38,505 bases of DNA from a phage, in the sequence record PX418924.1; one strand, written 5' to 3'. The notes below the pieces were generated by a model. That model was not told the DNA's origin, ran no database searches, and saw nothing but the letters and a program-made list of their open reading frames with translations. Shown here piece by piece: positions 3,892 through 10,936 of the stretch. Each line of letters starts with the position of its first letter. The stretch's first letter is position 1. The position numbers and the translations under genes were made by a program.

Positions 3892-4159
3892 TGTATGTCC
3901 GTTCGATACGACCACACGTTGAACCTTTCGGGTAGTAGAAGGATTTCGTTTCGTTGTCCTCAGTGGTCTGGAAGATGACCATCCCGGAGGACGTTGAGTA
4001 ACATTCCAACTTCTTGACCACCTTACCGCACGGCCCTAAGCCTAACTTAAATTCAGTCTTGCGGAGGTCATCACTACCGGGCATCCAAGCGTAGAACTTA
4101 ACGGAAGTCAAGCGGTTTAACTTAAAGATGTTCTTAAAGAAAGTCTTAATGTTAATCAT
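3887..4159 (-). CDS. 1.05: gp1.05-like protein (90 aa), function unknown
   Basis: ORF between phi1.05 and the R1.1 hairpin; ATG at 4159. Confidence 0.6.
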   Translation of the reverse strand: MINIKTFFKNIFKLNRLTSVKFYAWMPGSDDLRKTEFKLGLGPCGKVVKKLECYSTSSGMVIFQTTEDNETKSFYYPKGSTCGRIERTYS

Positions 4160-4214
4160 AAATTTAATCTCTTAGTACCTAAAGTGTCTTAAAGTGGGAG
4201 ACCTTAAGTAGTCT

Positions 4215-4245: not shown

Positions 4246-6900
4246 TTATGCAAAGGCAAAGTCAGACTTGAGAATGTCTTGCAGGTTCAGATTTCCTTTC
4301 TTCGGAAGCGGAGGCATCTTGTCCAGTTGGGTCTCATGTAGCTGGTCTGCAAACTGGTCATAGAAGTCTGCCAGCACATCGTTGTTCTCGTAGGTGAGAA
4401 CCATCGTTTCACGCACAGCCTTAAAGAGCTTACCAGCGTCTGCCGGGATAGTCCCGAAGCTGTCATGGATGAGCGCAAAGGACTCAATGCCATACTTCTC
4501 GTGAGCATAAACGACTGTCATGCGGAGGTGGCTACCGTCCTGTGAGTGAACAAAGTTAGGCGCGATGCCAGACTCCTGCTTGTGTGCGTCAATACCTGAA
4601 TCCTTGAGGGTATTAATCGTCGGTTGCAGACGGAATTGCCCTAAGAAAATCATATCGAGACGCTTCTGGAGTGGCTTTCGGTATTCCTGCCAGACCGGGA
4701 AGCCGTCCGGCGTAGTCCAGTGAACCGCGCAACGGTGGCGCAGAATCTCTTTGGTCTTCTTGTCCTTGACCTCAGCAGCCAGCAGCTTAGCGGCAGACTT
4801 GAGCCAGTTCATCGCCTCAACCGCTGCGACTACGGTCACGCTCACCGCGTCCCAAATCAGCTTAGCCATATAGCCAGCCGCTTGGTTAGGTTGGGTGAAC
4901 ATCAAGCCCTTACCGCTGTCAATCGCAGGCTGAATGGTGTCGTCCAGTACCTGTTGACGGAAGCCGAACTCCTTAGAACCGTAAGCCAGCGTCATGACCG
5001 AACGTTTAGTTACGCTACGGGTTACACCATATGCCAGCCACTGTTGTGCCAGCGTTGAGGTTCCCAGCTTGAGCTTCTCAGAGATTTCCCCGGTGTCCTT
5101 GTCGGTCACGGTAATCATCTCGTTAGGTGTGCCGTTGATTGCATCCTGTTTGAGAATCTCGTTTACTTTCTGTGCAACGATTCCGTAAATGTCCTGCACT
5201 GTTTCGCTTGGCAGCAGGTTAACCGCACGACCGCCTACCTCATCGCGGAGCATCGCGGAGAAGTGCTGGATACCGGAGCAAGACCCATCGAACGCCAGCG
5301 GCAGAGAGCAATTGTAGCTCAGACCGTGGTGCGCAACGCCTGCATACTCGAAGCAGAACGCGAGGAAACAGAATGGTGAATCCTGCTCAGCCCACCAAGT
5401 GTTATTGATTGGGTCTTTAGCGCAAGCCAGAATGTCGTCTACGTGCTTCTCAATGAACGCGATGCGCTCAGGGAAAGGAACCTTATCGACACCCGCACAG
5501 TTCGCACCGTGGATTTTCAGCCAGTAGAAACCTTCCTCACCGATTGGCTTGCCTTTAGCGAGGGTCAGCAGACCTTTCGTCATGTCGTTGCCTTGCGGGT
5601 TGAACATCGGCACAGCGTACACACGACCGCGCCAGTCCATGTTGTAAGGGAACCAGATTGCTTTCTTGTTTGCAAACTTGTTGGCCTGCTCCAGCATGAA
5701 CTCTAAGCTGATACGGCGAGACACTCGTGCCTTGTCCAAGCGGTAGATACCAGCGGCTGCTTTCTTCCACTCCTTGAGTGCTGCCTCGTTGGTGTCAATG
5801 TCGTCCGGCTTGGGCGGTAACTCTTGGCGCTCCAGCGATGGAATGTCTGCGACCGGGCAGTTCTTCCAGTTCACAATCTCATTGACAACCGCAAGAACTT
5901 TCTTGTTGATTTTCCATGCGGTGTTCTGTGCGATGTTGACCGCCTTGTAAACTTCTGGCATGTAAACATCCTCATAGCGCATCAAGCCCTTCTTAGAGTG
6001 AGTGCGAACGAGTGCCAAAGGTCTGCGACCGTTAGCCCAATAGCCGCCACCTGTGATTGATACCCAAGGTTTCGGCGGTACGACACACGGTTGGAACATC
6101 GGAGAGATGCCCGCCAGTGCTCCTGCACGCTTCGCTAACACATCGACGTACTCTTGGGCCAGTTGCAGTGCCTCATGGTCAGAGCCTGCGTTGCCTGCGT
6201 TGTGGCGCTGTAATTCCACCAGACCCGTGGATTCAATCAGCATTTCAATCAGGCGAATCCCTACGTGCATCGTGGTTTCCTTGTCCCAGCTAGACCACGC
6301 CTCGCCTCCCAGCAGCCCGCGACCAATCATGTCTGCCTCAACCACCTGCATAAAGGCTTTCTTGTAGACTTGCCCGTGGCGCTTGTTGAGTTGTTCCTCA
6401 ACGTGCTTCTTGAAGTGCTTCGCTTCGAGGTCACGGATGCGACCGAAACGTGCCTCGTCCTCAATGGCTTTCCCCAGCATACCAGCAGCGGCCTGAATGG
6501 TTGTCATGTTCGTGCTGGTCAGTGACGCAAGGATAACCTTGAGTGTGATAAACGCGGACGCCTCCGGCTTGAGTAACTGGAGTGGTGCATAGGCTACGGG
6601 CTTGCGGCCTTTCTTAGAGGCGTACTCTTCGAGCCACTCAACGATACGTGCTGTTAACTTAGGGAGAAGCGTAGCGAGTAATGGCTTAGCGGCTGCGTTA
6701 TCTGCAATCTCACCAGCTTTCGCTTGACGCTCAAGCATCTTGAGGAAGCGGCGCTCGCCTAGCTCATAAGACTCATGCTCTAAAGCCAATTGTTCACGAG
6801 CCAGTGCGCTACCGTAGTGGTCTGCCAGTGTGTTGAACGGGATAGCAGCCAGTTCGATTTCGGAGAAGTCATTCTTTTCGATAGTTTCGATGATGTTCAT
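4246..6900 (-). CDS. 1: Single-subunit DNA-directed RNA polymerase gp1 (884 aa)
   Basis: Full-length match to T3/T7 RNAP as recalled (MNIIETIEKNDFSEIELAAIPFNTLADHYG ... LQDILKSDFAFA); 884 aa is the T3 length. Confidence 0.98.
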   Translation of the reverse strand: MNIIETIEKNDFSEIELAAIPFNTLADHYGSALAREQLALEHESYELGERRFLKMLERQAKAGEIADNAAAKPLLATLLPKLTARIVEWLEEYASKKGRKPVAYAPLQLLKPEASAFITLKVILASLTSTNMTTIQAAAGMLGKAIEDEARFGRIRDLEAKHFKKHVEEQLNKRHGQVYKKAFMQVVEADMIGRGLLGGEAWSSWDKETTMHVGIRLIEMLIESTGLVELQRHNAGNAGSDHEALQLAQEYVDVLAKRAGALAGISPMFQPCVVPPKPWVSITGGGYWANGRRPLALVRTHSKKGLMRYEDVYMPEVYKAVNIAQNTAWKINKKVLAVVNEIVNWKNCPVADIPSLERQELPPKPDDIDTNEAALKEWKKAAAGIYRLDKARVSRRISLEFMLEQANKFANKKAIWFPYNMDWRGRVYAVPMFNPQGNDMTKGLLTLAKGKPIGEEGFYWLKIHGANCAGVDKVPFPERIAFIEKHVDDILACAKDPINNTWWAEQDSPFCFLAFCFEYAGVAHHGLSYNCSLPLAFDGSCSGIQHFSAMLRDEVGGRAVNLLPSETVQDIYGIVAQKVNEILKQDAINGTPNEMITVTDKDTGEISEKLKLGTSTLAQQWLAYGVTRSVTKRSVMTLAYGSKEFGFRQQVLDDTIQPAIDSGKGLMFTQPNQAAGYMAKLIWDAVSVTVVAAVEAMNWLKSAAKLLAAEVKDKKTKEILRHRCAVHWTTPDGFPVWQEYRKPLQKRLDMIFLGQFRLQPTINTLKDSGIDAHKQESGIAPNFVHSQDGSHLRMTVVYAHEKYGIESFALIHDSFGTIPADAGKLFKAVRETMVLTYENNDVLADFYDQFADQLHETQLDKMPPLPKKGNLNLQDILKSDFAFA

Positions 6901-6919
6901 TGCTTACCTCATTGTGAAT

Positions 6920-6962
6920 AAATCGTTCCTATTCAGGCCACCTCATGATGACCTGTAAGAAA
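6920..6962 (-). promoter_or_regulatory. Possible RNase III-type site (R1-like) between genes 0.7 and 1
   Basis: ttcaggccacctcatgatgacctg shows a degenerate aggccac...gacct module; position matches T7 R1. Confidence 0.35.
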
Positions 6963-6970
6963 AGACTCTA

Positions 6971-8080
6971 TCAGCCTTGTAGACGCTTGTCAAGGTATGC
7001 GTCTATGTGTAATGGTTTGCCCCACTGAATGCGCACCTCGTCGTGCATCATCATTGCCGCAGCAGCGCGGCGCTCCAGTTCTGCAAAGTTTAGGTTATTG
7101 TGGTGCATCCAAGCGTTGCGCCAGTGCTTATCGCCCCACACCATACGCGCCCTAGGCTCATCCCTGCGATTCTGATTGGCGTCCATGCGCATCTTAGCGA
7201 GTACCTTAGCGTTGCGCTTCTCACGTTTAGAGGCCTTTCTGCGCCATTTGGCACGGGCTTTACGTGCTGCCTGAAAGGTTCCGTTAGGGTCACGGCGTGC
7301 CTTGCGTGCCTTACAGCGGTCAATCGCTTCCTGCGCTCTCAGCGCCTCAATCTCAGCGATGAGTTCATCCGGGTCACAGTGGAACTCACCCGGCTTTAAC
7401 TTGTCGTCTGCGCTGAATGATACCGGGTCTGTGATAATCAGGCGTCCCATCTGGTCTTTCATCATGTTCCCGCTATGACAGTCGAACGATGCGATGCCTA
7501 AGAAGAACTTGCGGATATCCTTGCAGGTCTCAATAAAACCCTCGCTTATCGGGTACTCTTCTGCGGTGTCGAAGCAATCCTCCTCAATGATTTCCCGTGC
7601 GGCCTGAAAGTGGTGGCGAATCTTATCGCTTTCACCGTGGCACCAATCGTTAAGCGGTGTCAGATAGTCCAAGACCACCGTGTAGCAGCCTGTATGACGC
7701 TGAATGTCGTACACCGTAGGGATACCCTCACGACCCTGATTCATACGGCAGAATGCAGCATAGGCAGCGCCTGAATCCTCTTTCTTAAAGCCTACCTTGA
7801 TAACCTTGCCCGGTAACAATGCGTGCTCGTATGCTGCGCTAAAGTGACCGTTGCCCAGCTTGACGAAACCAACATCACGCATACGCTCCGCCAGTGTCTG
7901 CCAGTAGTCCATCGACTCCAGACCCCAATTGCCCTTGGCCTGCGTCAGTTCGCCGTCTTGAGTCTCAGCGTTCACGATAGCAGCCGCAAGAGCCACCAGC
8001 ATGGGCTGGCGTTCGTTCAGGCGCTCAATCGGTAGGTTGCGGATAGCTTCGAGTGCGGCTTGTGCTTCGGTGAAAGTCAT
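6971..8080 (-). CDS. 0.7: gp0.7 Ser/Thr protein kinase / host transcription shut-off protein (369 aa)
   Basis: Size, position upstream of gene 1 and kinase-like N-terminal half; ATG at 8080. Confidence 0.85.
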   Translation of the reverse strand: MTFTEAQAALEAIRNLPIERLNERQPMLVALAAAIVNAETQDGELTQAKGNWGLESMDYWQTLAERMRDVGFVKLGNGHFSAAYEHALLPGKVIKVGFKKEDSGAAYAAFCRMNQGREGIPTVYDIQRHTGCYTVVLDYLTPLNDWCHGESDKIRHHFQAAREIIEEDCFDTAEEYPISEGFIETCKDIRKFFLGIASFDCHSGNMMKDQMGRLIITDPVSFSADDKLKPGEFHCDPDELIAEIEALRAQEAIDRCKARKARRDPNGTFQAARKARAKWRRKASKREKRNAKVLAKMRMDANQNRRDEPRARMVWGDKHWRNAWMHHNNLNFAELERRAAAAMMMHDEVRIQWGKPLHIDAYLDKRLQG

Positions 8081-8094
8081 CGTTCAGTGTCCTG

Positions 8095-8220
8095 TTATCT
8101 GTAAGAAGAGTAAAGAGTAAATTCAGCCCATTTGACAGCGCTTGCAGCCTGTCGTGCGGTCATCTTGCGGTGTCTCGTTAAGATGCGTTTGACCTTACGT
8201 TTCGATGCACCATAAGCCAT
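8095..8220 (-). CDS. Possible small basic protein (41 aa)
   Basis: ATG at 8220, MAYGASKRKVKRILTRHRKM...; no clear Shine-Dalgarno; fills the gap before gene 0.7. Confidence 0.25.
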   Translation of the reverse strand: MAYGASKRKVKRILTRHRKMTARQAASAVKWAEFTLYSSYR

Positions 8221-8251
8221 AGCATACAGTGCAATCTTTACGTGCTTTGAG

Positions 8252-8449
8252 TTAGTGCGTAGCAATGTAGAATACTCCTACCTTGTTGGCCTTAAAGCGT
8301 CCGTTACGTTCACGAACCGTAAACCGTGGGATGAATCCCCACTTAAAGTAACTCAGCGTTGCCTTGTGTATTGCCAGACCGCGCTTAAAGTCTCGCATAA
8401 AGTACATAGCGATGCACAGATAGACCAGTGCGATAAAGAGAATCATCAT
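8252..8449 (-). CDS. Small early membrane protein (65 aa)
   Basis: MMILFIALVYLCIAMYF hydrophobic N-terminus; ATGA start/stop overlap with the upstream ORF. Confidence 0.5.
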   Translation of the reverse strand: MMILFIALVYLCIAMYFMRDFKRGLAIHKATLSYFKWGFIPRFTVRERNGRFKANKVGVFYIATH

Positions 8450-8604
8450 GCGTGTTTCACCAGTTCGATAGCCTCGCGGCCTCGCCCTTCTGCGTCCAAG
8501 TGTTCCATGAGTTTAACCATCTTGCGATGATAGCGAGCGGCCTTGCGTGACTCAGAGTACCAGCCAGCGACCGCAAAGAGTGCGATAGTGATAAATATAG
8601 CCAT
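8446..8604 (-). CDS. Small early membrane protein (52 aa)
   Basis: ATG at 8604 with AGGAGG 7 nt upstream; MAIFITIALFAVAGWY transmembrane-like segment. Confidence 0.55.
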   Translation of the reverse strand: MAIFITIALFAVAGWYSESRKAARYHRKMVKLMEHLDAEGRGREAIELVKHA

Positions 8605-8623
8605 TGCTAATCCTCCTGTTATG

Positions 8624-8824
8624 TCAATCATTCCAGCCCGCACATGTTGCTTGGTGTAGCACACAGGCTTGATAATCCTCTTGTGCTAAAATCGGGTTTA
8701 CCCAATGTGTGACCTGTTTACCGTATCGCACAACGTAGGTGCTTCCCATTGACCCGTGGTAATACTCACGCAGTGTTACGGTGCATTGGCCTTCTATTTT
8801 AGATGTTGCCAGTAGTTTACTCAT
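8624..8824 (-). CDS. Small early protein (66 aa), function unknown
   Basis: First ATG (8824) downstream of the R0.5 hairpin; upstream part of the ORF is occupied by the hairpin. Confidence 0.45.
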   Translation of the reverse strand: MSKLLATSKIEGQCTVTLREYYHGSMGSTYVVRYGKQVTHWVNPILAQEDYQACVLHQATCAGWND

Positions 8825-8850
8825 GGTGTTAGTCCTATAGCGTGCTAAGT

Positions 8851-8896
8851 GATAATCATAAAGGCCACACATACAGTGCGACCTTGAGTCTATCAC
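8851..8896 (-). promoter_or_regulatory. RNase III-type processing hairpin (R0.5-like)
   Basis: gataatcataaaggccacacatacagtgcgaccttgagtctatcac immediately after the gene 0.3 stop. Confidence 0.65.
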
Positions 8897-9355
8897 TTAC
8901 TGTACTTGCCAGCGGCGACCGAACTCATCAATCGTGAAGCAGCCTTGCAGCGGTGCGCCTTTGGGAACTTCTTGGAAGCTACCCGGCAGACGTTCAGCCT
9001 TATACCCGTCGATACCTTTAGCGTACACCAGACCAGCCGTGTGAGTCTGTGATTTGTATACCAGTACGCAATCTTGCTCCCACTCATTGCAAGCTAATCG
9101 TGCAACATTGAGTGCCTGCGCCTTGCCCTTGCAGCGTACACGAACCGTTTTTTCCTCAGTCGGTGCGCTTGCGATTGCCTCACGATAGCATCCGGTCAAA
9201 TCGGTTGACTCAACGGAGCCATAAAGACCCGGAAAGGCACGTAAAGTGCTTACCATGTGGCGGTGGCGACTCATGTTCACCTCATCGTCAAGGTTTGAAC
9301 GGAAAGCTGACACCAGTACATAGAAGACGTTAGCAGGCTCTTTAGTGAAAATCAT
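8897..9355 (-). CDS. 0.3: S-adenosyl-L-methionine-cleaving enzyme (T3 SAMase, anti-restriction), 152 aa
   Basis: MIFTKEPANVFYVLVSAFRSNL ... CFTIDEFGRRWQVQ matches T3 gp0.3 as recalled; first gene after the host promoters. Confidence 0.93.
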   Translation of the reverse strand: MIFTKEPANVFYVLVSAFRSNLDDEVNMSRHRHMVSTLRAFPGLYGSVESTDLTGCYREAIASAPTEEKTVRVRCKGKAQALNVARLACNEWEQDCVLVYKSQTHTAGLVYAKGIDGYKAERLPGSFQEVPKGAPLQGCFTIDEFGRRWQVQ

Positions 9356-9386
9356 TTGGTGTTACCTCATGTTAGTTCGTGTTAAG

Positions 9387-9436
9387 TGAATATCATAAAG
9401 GCCACGCTTTTAGTGCGACCTTGAGTTATTCGCTTA
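9387..9436 (-). promoter_or_regulatory. RNase III-type processing hairpin (R0.3-like) in the early leader
   Basis: gaatatcataaaggccacgcttttagtgcgaccttgagttattcgc. Confidence 0.65.
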
Positions 9437-9544
9437 TACATCGGTACACTCAAGAGCTATTATCCAGATTGTTAAAGAGCGTGTCGGTCTGGTTTCGTTA
9501 GACCCTAGCGGCTTTCAGTGTCCCGCCTCACTGTCGTTTCAATG

Positions 9545-9579
9545 TGGTACATAGTACCGTGCTTACTTCATGTTGTCAA
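9545..9579 (-). promoter_or_regulatory. Host sigma70 early promoter (A3-like)
   Basis: Minus strand TTGACA - 17 bp - TACTAT, near-identical to T7 A3 as recalled. Confidence 0.75.
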
Positions 9580-9653
9580 CCATTTTGTTTCGCTTTATGT
9601 GCCGTGGTGCGCTTAAGTCACCTAGAAGACACCGATTTGTGGTTGACGTTATG

Positions 9654-9689
9654 TGGTACATCTTACTGCATGTTACTTCATGTTGTCAA
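9654..9689 (-). promoter_or_regulatory. Host sigma70 early promoter (A2-like)
   Basis: Minus strand TTGACAACATGAAGTAACATGCAGTAAGAT, matches T7 A2 as recalled. Confidence 0.75.
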
Positions 9690-9782
9690 TGCCTGTTTTT
9701 CGTATGACTTATCAGGCTGTCTACTTATCCGGTTGACTCCGGTATCTCAGGGAGTGGCTTTAAGGCCGTTGTCCCGTTGACG

Positions 9783-9818
9783 AGATGAATAATAGCCTTA
9801 AGGGTTACTTAAAGTCAA
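9783..9818 (-). promoter_or_regulatory. Host sigma70 early promoter (A1-like)
   Basis: Minus strand TTGACT - 18 bp - TATTAT. Confidence 0.6.
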
Positions 9819-9875
9819 CCATTAATTTAAATCTTTTTATTAAATCTTTAATTCCCTCTTTAAGTATCCCTTATT

Positions 9876-9894
9876 CCCTTTAGTGAGGGTAATT
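9876..9894 (-). promoter_or_regulatory. T3-type phage RNAP promoter (phiOL, left end)
   Basis: ccctttagtgagggtaatt upstream of A1, followed by an AT-rich stretch. Confidence 0.8.
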
Positions 9895-9974
9895 GAATTG
9901 ACGATAGACACCATAGAGAACTACAGGGCGTCACTACAGGTTAACAGTGGGTCTATCGGTCTGGTTGTCTTTAA

Positions 9975-10470
9975 GATAGTGTCGCTCTTTAGGTAGTGGC
10001 TTTAGGTCTGGTCTTTAGGTGGAGGCTTTAGGGTTTACTTTATGAGGCTAACAGATAGGGACACATAGAGATGTACTATCGAACTGGTACACTAGGACAC
10101 TCCTTAAGCCCTCCTTAAGCCATCCACCACTTTAGGTATTGACTTTAGGAATCACTTTAGGCTATCCTATAGGCCACTTAAGGAGATACCCAAGGTTAAC
10201 CGAAGGTTAAACCCTAGGGGTAGGGCTGGCTTTAGGTGGCTTTAGGAGGGCTATGGGGGGTACTTTGGGTTCTTGAACTGTGAGATACCCATTCAGATTT
10301 TTGTGGTAAATTCTTAAAGGGGCTCTTTAGGCAACCACTTTAGGTAAGACCACACCATAGGTGAGACCATAGGCGCATCCCGAAGGGATAGCTAGGAGAC
10401 ACCAGAATACCCTGTAAGACCATTACGAACTACAGGGCATCTTTAGGTATAACCTTTAGGGTTGGCTCTA
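9975..10470 (-). repeat. Dispersed CCTAAAG heptamer arrays flanking and inside the terminal repeat
   Basis: More than 15 copies of ctttagg on the plus strand (CCTAAAG on the phage strand) at irregular spacing, as in the T7 end regions. Confidence 0.8.
10052..10285 (-). repeat. Terminal direct repeat, single copy in this circular representation; mature left end predicted at 10285
   Basis: Minus strand reads TCTCACAGTTCAAGAACCCAAAGTACCCCCC from 10285, matching the T7/T3 left-end start; inner boundary placed by analogy to T7 (...CCCTATCTGTTA). Confidence 0.5.
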
Positions 10471-10692: not shown

Positions 10693-10836
10693 TGAGCCAC
10701 CTCCTTTCAGTTGCTCTAAGGTAGGGTGATTATACAATGATAATATCACCAATCATAGAGGTAGACTTAAAGTGCATAAAGGGTCATTGCATAACTTGAA
10801 TGACTAACCTATATAGTAGCTTTAAGTCCCCTCTCT

Positions 10837-10855
10837 CCCTTTAGTGAGGGTTAAT
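10837..10855 (-). promoter_or_regulatory. T3-type phage RNAP promoter (phiOR, right end)
   Basis: ccctttagtgagggttaat between genes 19 and 19.5. Confidence 0.8.
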
Positions 10856-10936
10856 GCAAACTAGTTGATTCTTAAGGAATTTCTTAAAGTGACCATCCGT
10901 GGTCTAATTGAATCCTTATGCGCTCAATATGCATAA

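Follow-up and report, generated by a model that had tools for sequence, protein, structure and literature searches.

Four small early genes between the anti-restriction gene 0.3 and the kinase gene 0.7 of a T3-like phage

Are the short open reading frames that lie between the SAMase gene 0.3 and the kinase gene 0.7 of a T3-like phage real genes, and what might their products do in the infected cell? The question is raised by a Teetrevirus genome (sequence record PX418924.1), whose whole analysed stretch of 38,505 nucleotides, in reverse orientation, is here termed the window. Its region 8095-8824 contains four small ORFs, all on the minus strand (Table 1), where an earlier note on this DNA had listed ORFs of 66, 52, 65 and possibly 41 aa; each was recovered on that strand and at the coordinates then given. 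ORF1 and ORF2 are separated by 19 nt, the stop codon of ORF2 and the start codon of ORF3 overlap as ATGA at 8446-8449, and ORF3 and ORF4 overlap by 14 nt, with ORF4 in the +1 frame of gp0.6. The ATGA coupling that had been claimed for adjacent pairs therefore holds for ORF2/ORF3, the sole overlap of this kind in the cluster, but not for the other pairs. The reading somewhat favoured here is that of four separately translated class-I (early) accessory genes, with the proposed expression scheme, cassette exchange and takeover roles as small binders that are set out below.

Table 1. Positions of the ORFs, flanking genes and candidate signals in the window
Feature	Position	Strand	Details
Gene 0.7, protein kinase	6971-8080	minus	369 aa; 91-98% identical to T3/phiSG-JL2 gp0.7; right boundary
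ORF4 = gp0.65	8095-8265	minus	TTG, 56 aa; alternative 41-aa ATG form 8095-8220
ORF3 = T3-type gp0.6	8252-8449	minus	ATG, 65 aa
gp0.6/gp0.65 junction	8252-8290	minus	SD-like AAGGTAGGAG, downstream gene start codon, gp0.6 stop
ORF2	8446-8604	minus	ATG, 52 aa
ORF1 = gp0.45	8624-8824	minus	ATG, 66 aa
Gene 0.3, SAM-cleaving anti-restriction enzyme	8897-9355	minus	152 aa; 97-98% identical to T3/phiSG-JL2 gene 0.3 product; left boundary
RNase III-type hairpin, 0.3/0.45 spacer	8825-8896	minus	-24.8 kcal/mol, z = -3.0, 0/200 shuffles as stable
Hairpin after kinase gene (R1 RNase III site equivalent)	6895-6970	minus	-22.5 kcal/mol, z = -2.7; R1 annotated here in T3, phiSG-JL2
Sigma-70-type host promoter (one of three A1-A3 equivalents)	9818-9789	minus	TTGACT/TATTAT; 10/12 matches
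Sigma-70-type host promoter (one of three A1-A3 equivalents)	9689-9660	minus	TTGACA/TAAGAT; 10/12 matches
Sigma-70-type host promoter (one of three A1-A3 equivalents)	9579-9551	minus	TTGACA/TACTAT; 10/12 matches

Identity, conservation and proposed expression of the four genes

Identities were assigned from BLASTP comparisons with the proteins of T3, phiSG-JL2 and T7, from PHROG matches (E = 1e-25 to 1e-45) and from the GenBank annotation of T3, phiSG-JL2, Patroon and ViciousJeremy. ORF1 is identical to phiSG-JL2 gp0.45 at 65/66 residues and matches phrog_6500 over its full length (1-66/66, E = 1e-44). The gp0.45 proteins of phiYeO3-12 and phiSG-JL2, also of 66 aa and 97-98% identical to ORF1, likewise follow an RNase III hairpin, and no difference from ORF1 was noted. 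ORF2 matches phrog_25811, again over its full length (1-52/52, E = 2e-39), and its family occurs in 46 phage records (41 at ≥86% identity and 5 at ~40%), where it is deposited as 'hypothetical protein'; the 40%-identical homologue, carried by the Teseptimavirus phages JeanTinguely, SYGE1 and Bas103, has the motif LDAEGRGxEAxE in common with ORF2. ORF3 is 91% identical to T3 gp0.6 and a full-length match to phrog_2385 (E = 9e-30). The T3 gene 0.6 protein (NP_523298), also a 65-aa member of this family and likewise placed before gp0.65 and the kinase, differs from ORF3 at a few residues of the N-terminal anchor and in nothing of substance. All four genes are thus already catalogued or annotated in related phages and belong to known families, and the earlier description of the cluster as uncharacterised stands in the sense that the libraries searched and the literature found attach no function to any of the four. 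Homology to characterised T3 0.4-0.65 proteins had been named as grounds for giving up that description; the homology is there (gp0.45, gp0.6 and gp0.65) but the known roles are not.

The four ORFs are real, conserved small early genes, beyond what chance would give. In tblastn searches of deposited phage genomes, ORF1 was found in 155, ORF2 in 46, ORF4 in 177 and ORF3 in at least 574, these carriers of T3-type gp0.6 being sequenced Studiervirinae and mostly Klebsiella phages. Comparison with relatives gave dN/dS values of 0.05-0.28 for ORF1, 0.07-0.30 for ORF3 and 0.07-0.22 for ORF4, against about 1-4 in shifted control frames, and none for ORF2 because substitutions among its close relatives are too few. 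Purifying selection thus acts on ORF1, ORF3 and ORF4, and for ORF2 there is the distant homologue in Teseptimavirus phages. It might still be argued that the ORFs are not made as proteins and that this stretch serves the kinase mRNA as an untranslated or regulatory leader, given that the ORFs are short and that ORF2 or ORF4 is omitted in several annotations (phiSG-JL2; SH1/SH2). However, the frame-specific purifying selection effectively refutes such a leader, to which the intactness of the frames even among proteins that are 57-80% identical, a distance that saturates synonymous sites, the presence of Shine-Dalgarno (SD) sequences and coupled starts, and the lack of any Rfam match at a permissive threshold over 6800-10400 are added, leaving it a negligible probability.

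Upstream of the cluster and on the same strand lie three putative host promoters of the sigma-70 type (Table 1), of which A2 and A3 are annotated in T3 and phiSG-JL2 at equivalent relative position; no terminator or T3-type phage promoter was found between them and the small ORFs, and within the cluster no phage promoter was detected either. These signals agree with the claimed transcription from A1-A3. The hairpin in the 0.3/0.45 spacer is the equivalent of R0.45 in phiSG-JL2 and R0.5 in T3, an RNase III site being annotated there in both, and its core, T[AT]TGATTATCA, sits before different cassettes in other phages. The strong AGGAGG site that had been pointed out was confirmed 7 nt before the ATG of ORF2 (acAGGAGGattagcaATG).

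A scheme of expression can be proposed from these signals together with T3/T7 annotation. Host RNA polymerase would transcribe all four small genes from A1-A3, and RNase III would probably cut at two hairpins, one upstream of gp0.45 and one downstream of gene 0.7, giving a 0.45-0.7 message. On this message ORF2 would be translated from its strong AGGAGG site, translation of gp0.6 would be coupled to that of ORF2 via the ATGA overlap, and gp0.65 would initiate independently at a UUG codon that lies 14 nt ahead of the gp0.6 stop and is served by an SD sequence within gp0.6.

Start of gp0.65 and the junction with gp0.6

ORF4 and T3 gp0.65, a protein annotated 'UUG start codon', are 98% identical, and in its 56-aa form ORF4 matches phrog_10380 end to end (1-55/55, E = 1e-34). 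The T3 protein (NP_523299) is identical to ORF4 at 52/53 aligned residues and has the same UUG start and 14-nt overlap with gp0.6, the difference being one extra Ser near the C-terminus, whereas most members of phrog_10380 differ from ORF4 in starting at an ATG one codon upstream. The TTG at 8265 is preceded at 9 nt by aaGGtAGGAG, and no SD sequence was found before the ATG of the 41-aa form. ORF4 is therefore probably best read as a protein of 56 aa initiated at UUG, with the 41-aa call a truncation; the ORF that the earlier note had flagged as possible exists, but the longer form is the better supported.

The overlap with gp0.6 admits a second model, in which ORF4 is the C-terminal half of a fusion, gp0.6B, that arises through programmed frameshifting (+1 or -2) by ribosomes approaching the end of gp0.6. 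A joined CDS 0.6B is annotated in the records of phiSG-JL2 and T7 (there as 'possible'), and phiYeO3-12 lists '0.6B'. The +1 frame of the overlap would suit such a shift, as would the absence of an ATG at the junction in the window and T3 and the SD-like AGGAG just upstream. The +1 frameshift site of prfB likewise has an SD-like element just upstream. However, in T3 the gene is annotated as separate with its own UUG start, most gene callers report 56 aa for ORF4, and in 25/26 database homologues of gp0.65 the first residue is an M encoded by an ATG at the junction, one codon upstream of the TTG. In this +1 frame an ATG is present in most relatives and in T7, its place being taken in the window by TTG with an SD sequence. 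Moreover, the +1 frame of the window has a TAG stop codon four codons upstream of the TTG, and a shift would therefore be confined to GAG UAU UCU ACA / GGA GUA UUC UAC AUU GCU ACG CAC UAA; by inspection, 0/9 zero-frame codons between that TAG and the gp0.6 stop allow cognate P-site +1 re-pairing.

The junction sequence itself (AAyAArGTnGG...TTCTAyrTnGCnACnCAyTrA) can be followed, conserved, from the window as far as T7, and what comes after it varies: it may be a basic product of the 0.65 type, one of the T7 type, a hydrophobic peptide, a protein of 302 aa or directly the kinase. That the same junction precedes unrelated cargo, including a kinase with its own start, again speaks against the fusion, which is judged decidedly unlikely, and gp0.65 looks independently initiated on this sequence evidence. 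Homology of gp0.65 to the tail of T7 0.6B was considered and rejected (hhalign probability < 4%). The names 'gp0.6B' and 'gp0.65' designate one locus under two models.

ORF2, T3-type gp0.6 and the inner membrane

Two of the four products had been described as membrane proteins, and this was assessed with the classical 19-residue hydropathy criterion (threshold 1.6). ORF3, whose N-terminus is the hydrophobic stretch MMILFIALVYLCIAMYF, clearly passes (KD19 = 2.17), whereas ORF2, with the stretch MAIFITIALFAVAGWY at its N-terminus, is borderline (KD19 1.46), making the description sound for the former and probable, not certain, for the latter. ORF2 is probably an N-terminal membrane anchor followed by a charged helical tail. 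Since its hydrophobic run extends over only 16-17 residues and its KD19 stays below the threshold, the segment may instead be a peripheral or oligomerisation helix. A 61-aa form of ORF2 from an upstream ATG (8631), which would have a canonical 22-residue helix, was rejected, and the 52-aa start is supported, because homology in L030 begins only at the SD sequence and ATG.

ORF2 occupies the slot of T7 gene 0.5. Similarly to ORF2, the product of that gene (NP_041956) is a small hydrophobic peptide (KD19 2.18) encoded after an RNase III-type hairpin, with a stop codon that overlaps the start of gene 0.6. However, T7 gp0.5 is hydrophobic along all 47 aa, unlike ORF2 with its one short N-terminal run and charged 35-residue tail, and BLASTP gave no alignment of the two at E ≤ 100 in a tiny database.

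ORF3 is predicted from its sequence to consist of a clear N-terminal membrane anchor and a basic, near-invariant C-terminal domain. The gp0.6 family is represented by 117 database clusters. In its column statistics, residues 1-17 are hydrophobic yet variable (mean KD 2.30; 1.70 bits), the 15 residues after the anchor contain 4-6 K+R, and residues 41-65 are near-invariant, with an entropy of 0.20 bits. ORF3 has every invariant column of the family, including the C-terminal motif PRFTVRxxNGRFKANKVGxFYxATH. When 1.84 billion representatives were searched exhaustively with the family profile, only 11 clusters came back, all short and clearly of the gp0.6 family, with no distant relatives among them. 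Two matches from a scan of genome contigs were dismissed as artefacts, one on a 749-bp scaffold and the other on a GC-discontinuous chimeric contig.

In T7, Gp0.6 is reported to target MreB, and Gp0.4 targets FtsZ (PMC5624674, PMC6965359). Sharing gene number and position with T7 Gp0.6 (gp0.6A), T3-type gp0.6 might be its functional equivalent, a membrane-tethered MreB inhibitor. MreB is membrane-associated, which would fit an anchored inhibitor, and the last 20 residues of the two proteins are 45% identical, both ending in TH before the stop codon. However, the alignment covers only residues 46-65 of the T3-type protein and residues 34-53 of T7 gp0.6A, and the homology is limited to the last ~11-20 residues and to the DNA junction that encodes them, a conserved recombination junction; the N-terminal ~40 residues are unrelated, and T7 gp0.6A has neither a membrane anchor nor any hydrophobic segment (KD17 0.24). 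In many T7-type gp0.6A proteins the sequence stops at ...KINKI, so that the shared tail is missing altogether, tblastn with the T3-type protein gave no match in the T7 early-region locus L005, and ORF2 can precede either type of 0.6. The MreB-inhibitor role is not transferable to T3-type gp0.6, because only this C-terminal stretch is common to both, and such an equivalence is considered highly doubtful. The T3-type and T7-type 'gp0.6' are different proteins and, more generally, T7 proteins bearing the same gene numbers are not homologues of the window proteins.

Cassette exchange and proposed roles in host takeover

Each of the four genes is found with or without the others, beside kinases that are 35-98% identical, and T3 itself has neither gp0.45 nor ORF2. 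Genome comparison shows the genes to be dispensable cassettes that, judging by their distribution, move independently of one another within the Studiervirinae. The exchange takes place at conserved joints: the RNase III hairpin, the ATGATG junction of ORF2 with 0.6, and the junction between 0.6 and 0.65. An obligate pairing of ORF2 with gp0.6 was considered and rejected, the upstream neighbours of gp0.6 being many and ORF2 being able to precede a T7-type gp0.6A.

Searches for function were uniformly uninformative. Pfam, NCBIfam and PADLOC gave no significant match for any of the four proteins, profile searches of PDB sequences returned chance matches only (e.g. glucocorticoid receptor, E = 0.03), fold matches of the small proteins were generic, and the one paper found to list the four genes assigns them no function. 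The 'RNA polymerase sigma factor' label in Pectobacterium phage Q19 is attached to a different gene upstream, which is unrelated.

We infer that each of the four small proteins may bind a component of the host stoichiometrically during takeover, a mechanistic reading that rests on composition, conservation pattern and analogy. The gp0.6 protein, which has RDFKRG behind its anchor and no charge in front of it, would insert N-out/C-in and expose its near-invariant basic domain of ~48 residues on the cytoplasmic side of the inner membrane, where ORF2 may act as a second peptide composed of an anchor and a helical hairpin. A mechanism of this type can be likened to that of Gp11 of the S. aureus phage PhiNM1, a small membrane protein that targets MurG and DivIC (PMC11237401). 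Gp11 is also an early product, although phage and host are unrelated to those considered here and the likeness is one of analogy only. Together with T7 Gp0.4 and Gp0.6, it offers a precedent for small early products that act on the cytoskeleton or the envelope. For gp0.45, a soluble protein with a net charge of 0, the AF2 model (pLDDT 84.7; confident in only 2/5 AF2 runs) shows four strands together with a helix at the C-terminus, and a soluble binder with a sheet-plus-helix fold is envisaged. A candidate comparison for this fold is the AP2/integrase arm-type DNA-binding domain, in which a sheet of three strands packs against a helix. The AF2 model of gp0.65, with a net charge of +13, consists of three helices (pLDDT 87.6) in a tri-helical arrangement as in helix-turn-helix (HTH) DNA-binding proteins, and the protein may bind nucleic acid or an acidic host protein; no match to a curated HTH family was found in Pfam/NCBIfam at E ≤ 0.01, and the PDB profile search stayed at chance level.

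Some or all of these genes could instead be anti-defence or inter-phage competition factors, acting by inhibition of a specific bacterial immune system or, for the two membrane peptides, by keeping the DNA of superinfecting phage out of the cell. They follow an anti-restriction gene directly and so lie in the part of the phage DNA that enters the cell first, and they are accessory, patchy and freely shuffled, a distribution equally expected of anti-defence genes; their loss from laboratory T3 would also be in keeping with such a role. However, no match to known anti-defence or defence families was obtained, the fold matches carry no specific signal, and the gp0.6 C-terminus is very strongly conserved from one host genus to another, as is gp0.45 among its family members (all ≥67% identical), a pattern atypical for arms-race proteins, so that an anti-defence role seems rather unlikely.

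Binding of host components during takeover thus remains the preferred reading. The invariance of the gp0.6 C-terminus spans phages of Klebsiella, Escherichia, Yersinia, Pectobacterium and Erwinia and would therefore point to a conserved housekeeping membrane target (envelope synthesis, cell shape or division) and not to a variable defence system. More tentatively, gp0.6 might represent an unrecognised class of membrane-tethered takeover effector, in which the basic 25-residue motif PRFTVRERNGRFKANKVGVFYIATH binds a conserved enterobacterial target associated with the inner membrane, the upstream hydrophobic peptides (ORF2, T7 gp0.5 and others) serve as interchangeable partners, and the RNase III hairpin and the two gene junctions act as dedicated recombination joints for early cassettes; this is put forward as a less likely possibility.

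The analysis clarifies the naming of this region, in which two gp0.6 types, the gp0.6B/gp0.65 synonymy and the 41-aa call have coexisted. These small genes are among the first expressed in infections of the T3 or KP32 type, and they are found in hundreds of phages under development against Klebsiella and other Enterobacterales. Identifying the target of gp0.6 could uncover a new means of disabling a membrane process conserved in bacteria, comparable to the action of T7 Gp0.4 on FtsZ and of T7 Gp0.6 on MreB.

Four catalogued genes between the SAMase and the kinase

The window is a T3-like (Teetrevirus) genome in reverse, which places its early genes on the minus strand. The best DNA matches to 6900-9400 are Teetrevirus phages of Klebsiella, Shigella, Serratia and Salmonella (96-97% identity), with no identical record among them. 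The T3 RNA-polymerase promoter consensus is matched eleven times between 1828 and 37231, always on the minus strand (chance expectation 0); taken with an early region at 6.9-10.9 kb, this shows that the window is a reverse-complemented, circularly permuted genome copy. The small ORFs, the hydrophobic peptides and the AGGAGG site described in an earlier note were all found between genes 0.3 and 0.7. The ATGA coupling it ascribed to adjacent pairs holds for one overlap (8446-8449), but not for ORF3/ORF4 (14-nt overlap) or ORF1/ORF2 (19-nt gap).

Features of the early region, in window positions
Feature	Position	Strand	Remarks
Phage promoter, phiOL equivalent	10834-10856		nearest upstream of the region
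Three sigma-70-type promoters	9551-9818	-	10/12 matches each; T3 and phiSG-JL2 annotate A2, A3 there
Gene 0.3, SAM-cleaving enzyme (SAMase)	8897-9355	-	flanks the four ORFs
Hairpin in 72-nt spacer before ORF1	8825-8896	-	-24.8 kcal/mol, z = -3.0
ORF1 (gp0.45)	8624-8824	-	ATG start, 66 aa
ORF2	8446-8604	-	ATG start, 52 aa
ORF3 (gp0.6)	8252-8449	-	ATG start, 65 aa
ORF4 (gp0.65)	8095-8265	-	TTG start, 56 aa; 41 aa if from ATG at 8220
Gene 0.7, kinase	6971-8080	-	other flank of the four ORFs
Second hairpin, 3' of kinase gene			-22.5 kcal/mol, z = -2.7

Judged by sequence, the four ORFs are genes already catalogued as gp0.45, gp0.6, gp0.65 and a recurrent hypothetical protein, their products being 97-100% identical to deposited proteins. 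ORF1 shares 65 of 66 residues with phiSG-JL2 gp0.45, and its identity to the phiYeO3-12 "putative 0.45 protein" is 97%. T3 supplies the counterparts of ORF3 ("gene 0.6 protein", 91% identity) and ORF4 ("gene 0.65 protein", 98% identity, with "UUG start codon" stated in the record). Patroon, ViciousJeremy, SH1/SH2 and other relatives list ORF2 as a hypothetical protein, and in phiSG-JL2 its frame is intact, though unannotated. The Teseptimavirus phages JeanTinguely, SYGE1 and Bas103 carry an ORF2 homologue at 40% identity, with the motif LDAEGRGxEAxE in common. Over its full length each ORF matches a single PHROG family, all four families being marked "unknown function". By tblastn against 50,697 phage records, gp0.6 was found in 574, gp0.65 in 177, gp0.45 in 155 and ORF2 in 46. 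Loss of the reading frames in close relatives had been named as evidence against these genes; the frames are kept, and pairwise Nei-Gojobori dN/dS across related loci (ORF1 0.05-0.28, ORF3 0.07-0.30, ORF4 0.07-0.22) resembles that of the SAMase and kinase and lies well below shifted-frame controls from the same alignments (about 1-4). ORF2 is left out of this comparison because its close relatives carry too few substitutions.

The proposed transcription from A1-A3 agrees with three sigma-70-type promoters upstream on the same strand and no minus-strand terminator in the region; from these promoters to the 3' end of the kinase gene there is no T3-type phage promoter. Both hairpin positions are RNase III sites in the T3 and phiSG-JL2 annotation. 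We infer one processed early mRNA common to the four ORFs and the kinase. Gene identities and expression architecture together are close to certain.

The gp0.6/gp0.65 junction

In phiSG-JL2 and T7 the frame equivalent to ORF4 is annotated as a joined "gp0.6B", implying a +1 frameshift from gp0.6A. Comparison of about 24 distinct relatives makes such a fusion improbable. The junction DNA AAyAArGTnGG...TTCTAyrTnGCnACnCAyTrA is kept from the window to T7, and in most relatives and T7 a +1-frame ATG lies 14-17 nt before the gp0.6 stop; 25 of 26 gp0.65 homologues in a large protein database start with the M it encodes, most being called at 56 aa. In the T3 lineage TAT GTT has become TAC ATT, so that this ATG is lost and the adjacent TTG left; in the window aaGGtAGGAG lies 9 nt upstream of the TTG. 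A TAG closes the +1 frame of the window four codons before the TTG, and by inspection none of the nine remaining zero-frame codons allows +1 tRNA re-pairing. The cargo 3' of the junction is moreover unrelated from phage to phage: a T7-type basic protein after T3-type gp0.6 (locus L014), a 25-residue hydrophobic peptide, a 302-aa protein or the kinase itself. The conserved ATG, the Shine-Dalgarno site, the closed frame and the varied cargo make independent, coupled initiation the more economical reading, and ORF4 is probably 56 aa from UUG. The possible 41-aa ORF of the earlier note lies in a real frame, but its ATG has no Shine-Dalgarno site, whereas the TTG form has one.

Several relatives show rearrangements here. 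Four T7 relatives (L042, L028, L014, L044) carry an intact 72-aa ORF, M[TL][EQ][RL]TDxLKKGY...LS, from the junction ATG inside 0.6A to the kinase Shine-Dalgarno site; in laboratory T7 (NC_001604, locus L005, 1380-1580) a 1-nt deletion (CAAGG-ACAAG versus TAAGGCCCAAG) alters its C-terminal half, so that 'possible gene 0.6B' of T7 may be an independent gene in frameshifted form. Three loci have unusual cargo after the gp0.6 junction: L021 (2680-3545) carries the 302-aa protein, in L035 (1758-2870) the junction frame runs on unbroken into that of the kinase, and in L025 (1760-1984) a deletion has fused some 15 N-terminal residues of a gp0.65-like protein to the last ~55 of the kinase. P0019, a 95-aa gp0.65 homologue of Klebsiella phage SH-Kp 152410, has a 39-residue N-terminal extension resembling the small gene upstream of gp0.6 in KP32-like phages joined to the 3' end of gp0.6 read in the +1 frame; either a deletion has fused the two or the gene call extends too far. 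Its precomputed Pfam tag, PF26807, was not reproduced by a local Pfam scan.

Cassette exchange and the T7 proteins of the same number

Each gene is found with or without the other three, beside kinases 35-98% identical and beside either SAMase or Ocr. T3 itself lacks gp0.45 and ORF2, which are thus dispensable, at least for sequenced T3 isolates. Upstream of gp0.6 stand ORF2, a T7 gp0.5-type peptide, another small hydrophobic peptide, gp0.45, SAMase or others, and ORF2 can be followed by T7-type gp0.6A via the identical GGTGAAACACGC-ATGATGA junction. The core of the RNase III hairpin, T[AT]TGATTATCA (window 8825-8896, minus strand; loci L028-L065), stands directly before gp0.45 in 20 loci, T7 gp0.5-type in about 17 and ORF2-type in 5, and also Ocr, SAMase, 94-aa and 147-aa proteins and others. 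Such varied neighbours across shared hairpin and junctions suggest that cassettes are exchanged at three conserved joints, the hairpin perhaps doubling as one.

T7 proteins bearing the same gene numbers are not homologues of the window proteins. T3-type gp0.6 and T7 gp0.6A share only their last ~11-20 residues, encoded by the conserved junction; several T7-type gp0.6A proteins end before even this tail, and T7 gp0.6A lacks a hydrophobic segment. The reported inhibition of MreB by T7 Gp0.6, cited in PMC5624674 and PMC6965359, is therefore not transferable by homology. The gp0.65 and T7 "0.6B tail" families (hhalign probability <4%) have in common only the junction-encoded M-x-x-R-T-D/N. ORF2 shows no sequence similarity to T7 gp0.5, although both fill the same slot, after the hairpin and with a stop overlapping the gene 0.6 start.

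Predicted proteins and possible roles

Across 61 diverse family members, gp0.6 residues 1-17 are hydrophobic (mean KD 2.30) and variable (1.70 bits), residues 18-40 intermediate (0.93 bits) and residues 41-65 almost invariant (0.20 bits); no charge precedes the hydrophobic run and RDFKRG follows it. This pattern is the signature of a predicted N-out/C-in anchor with a constrained basic (+9) cytoplasmic domain. In ORF2 an N-terminal run of 16-17 hydrophobic residues (KD15 2.74) is followed by six K+R within 15 residues and a charged tail. Of the two membrane proteins claimed earlier, gp0.6 has a clear predicted anchor and ORF2 is borderline (KD19 1.46, threshold 1.6). The predicted gp0.45 fold has four strands and a C-terminal helix (pLDDT 84.7, only two of five models confident); it has clear structural relatives (ten best: TM 0.64-0.79, 22-39% identity) among uncharacterised ~60-aa proteins from phages of Bordetella and Pseudomonas, Klebsiella jumbo phages and others. 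No function is assigned from these features.

An exhaustive profile search of 1.84 billion representatives returned no distant gp0.6 relatives, only 11 clusters of 32-93 aa. In phiSG-JL2, gp0.6A (L001, 1601-1840) has 79 aa rather than 65 through an in-frame 14-residue tandem duplication, KRGLAIHKATLSYF, in the juxtamembrane segment, which evidently tolerates insertion. Two bacterial assemblies contain gp0.6-like sequence that is 86% identical to enterobacterial phages at the nucleotide level, Mangrovicoccus ximenensis (L067, NZ_QBKZ01000003.1, locus 4001-4180) and a 749-bp scaffold of Flammeovirga aprica (L066). L067 was rejected as a bacterial homologue: the gp0.6-like stretch breaks off at the very point where GC rises from about 40% to about 65%, which marks the contig as chimeric or contaminated.

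Made in the first minutes of infection, these proteins would be small stoichiometric binders of host components. Takeover at the membrane by gp0.6 and ORF2 is a tentative proposal, somewhat short of an even chance. Precedents are T7 Gp0.4 acting on FtsZ and T7 Gp0.6 reported to act on MreB (the two sources named above), and the PhiNM1 membrane protein Gp11 acting on MurG/DivIC (PMC11237401). The early location and patchy distribution of the four genes would equally suit anti-defence or exclusion; however, the gp0.6 cytoplasmic domain is near-invariant across phages of Klebsiella, Escherichia, Yersinia, Pectobacterium, Erwinia and Serratia, which favours a conserved housekeeping component at the inner membrane as the putative target over a variable defence system, and we give an anti-defence or exclusion role a smaller but appreciable probability. 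The cautious interpretation first placed on these ORFs is upheld. The locus contains nothing of a new kind.
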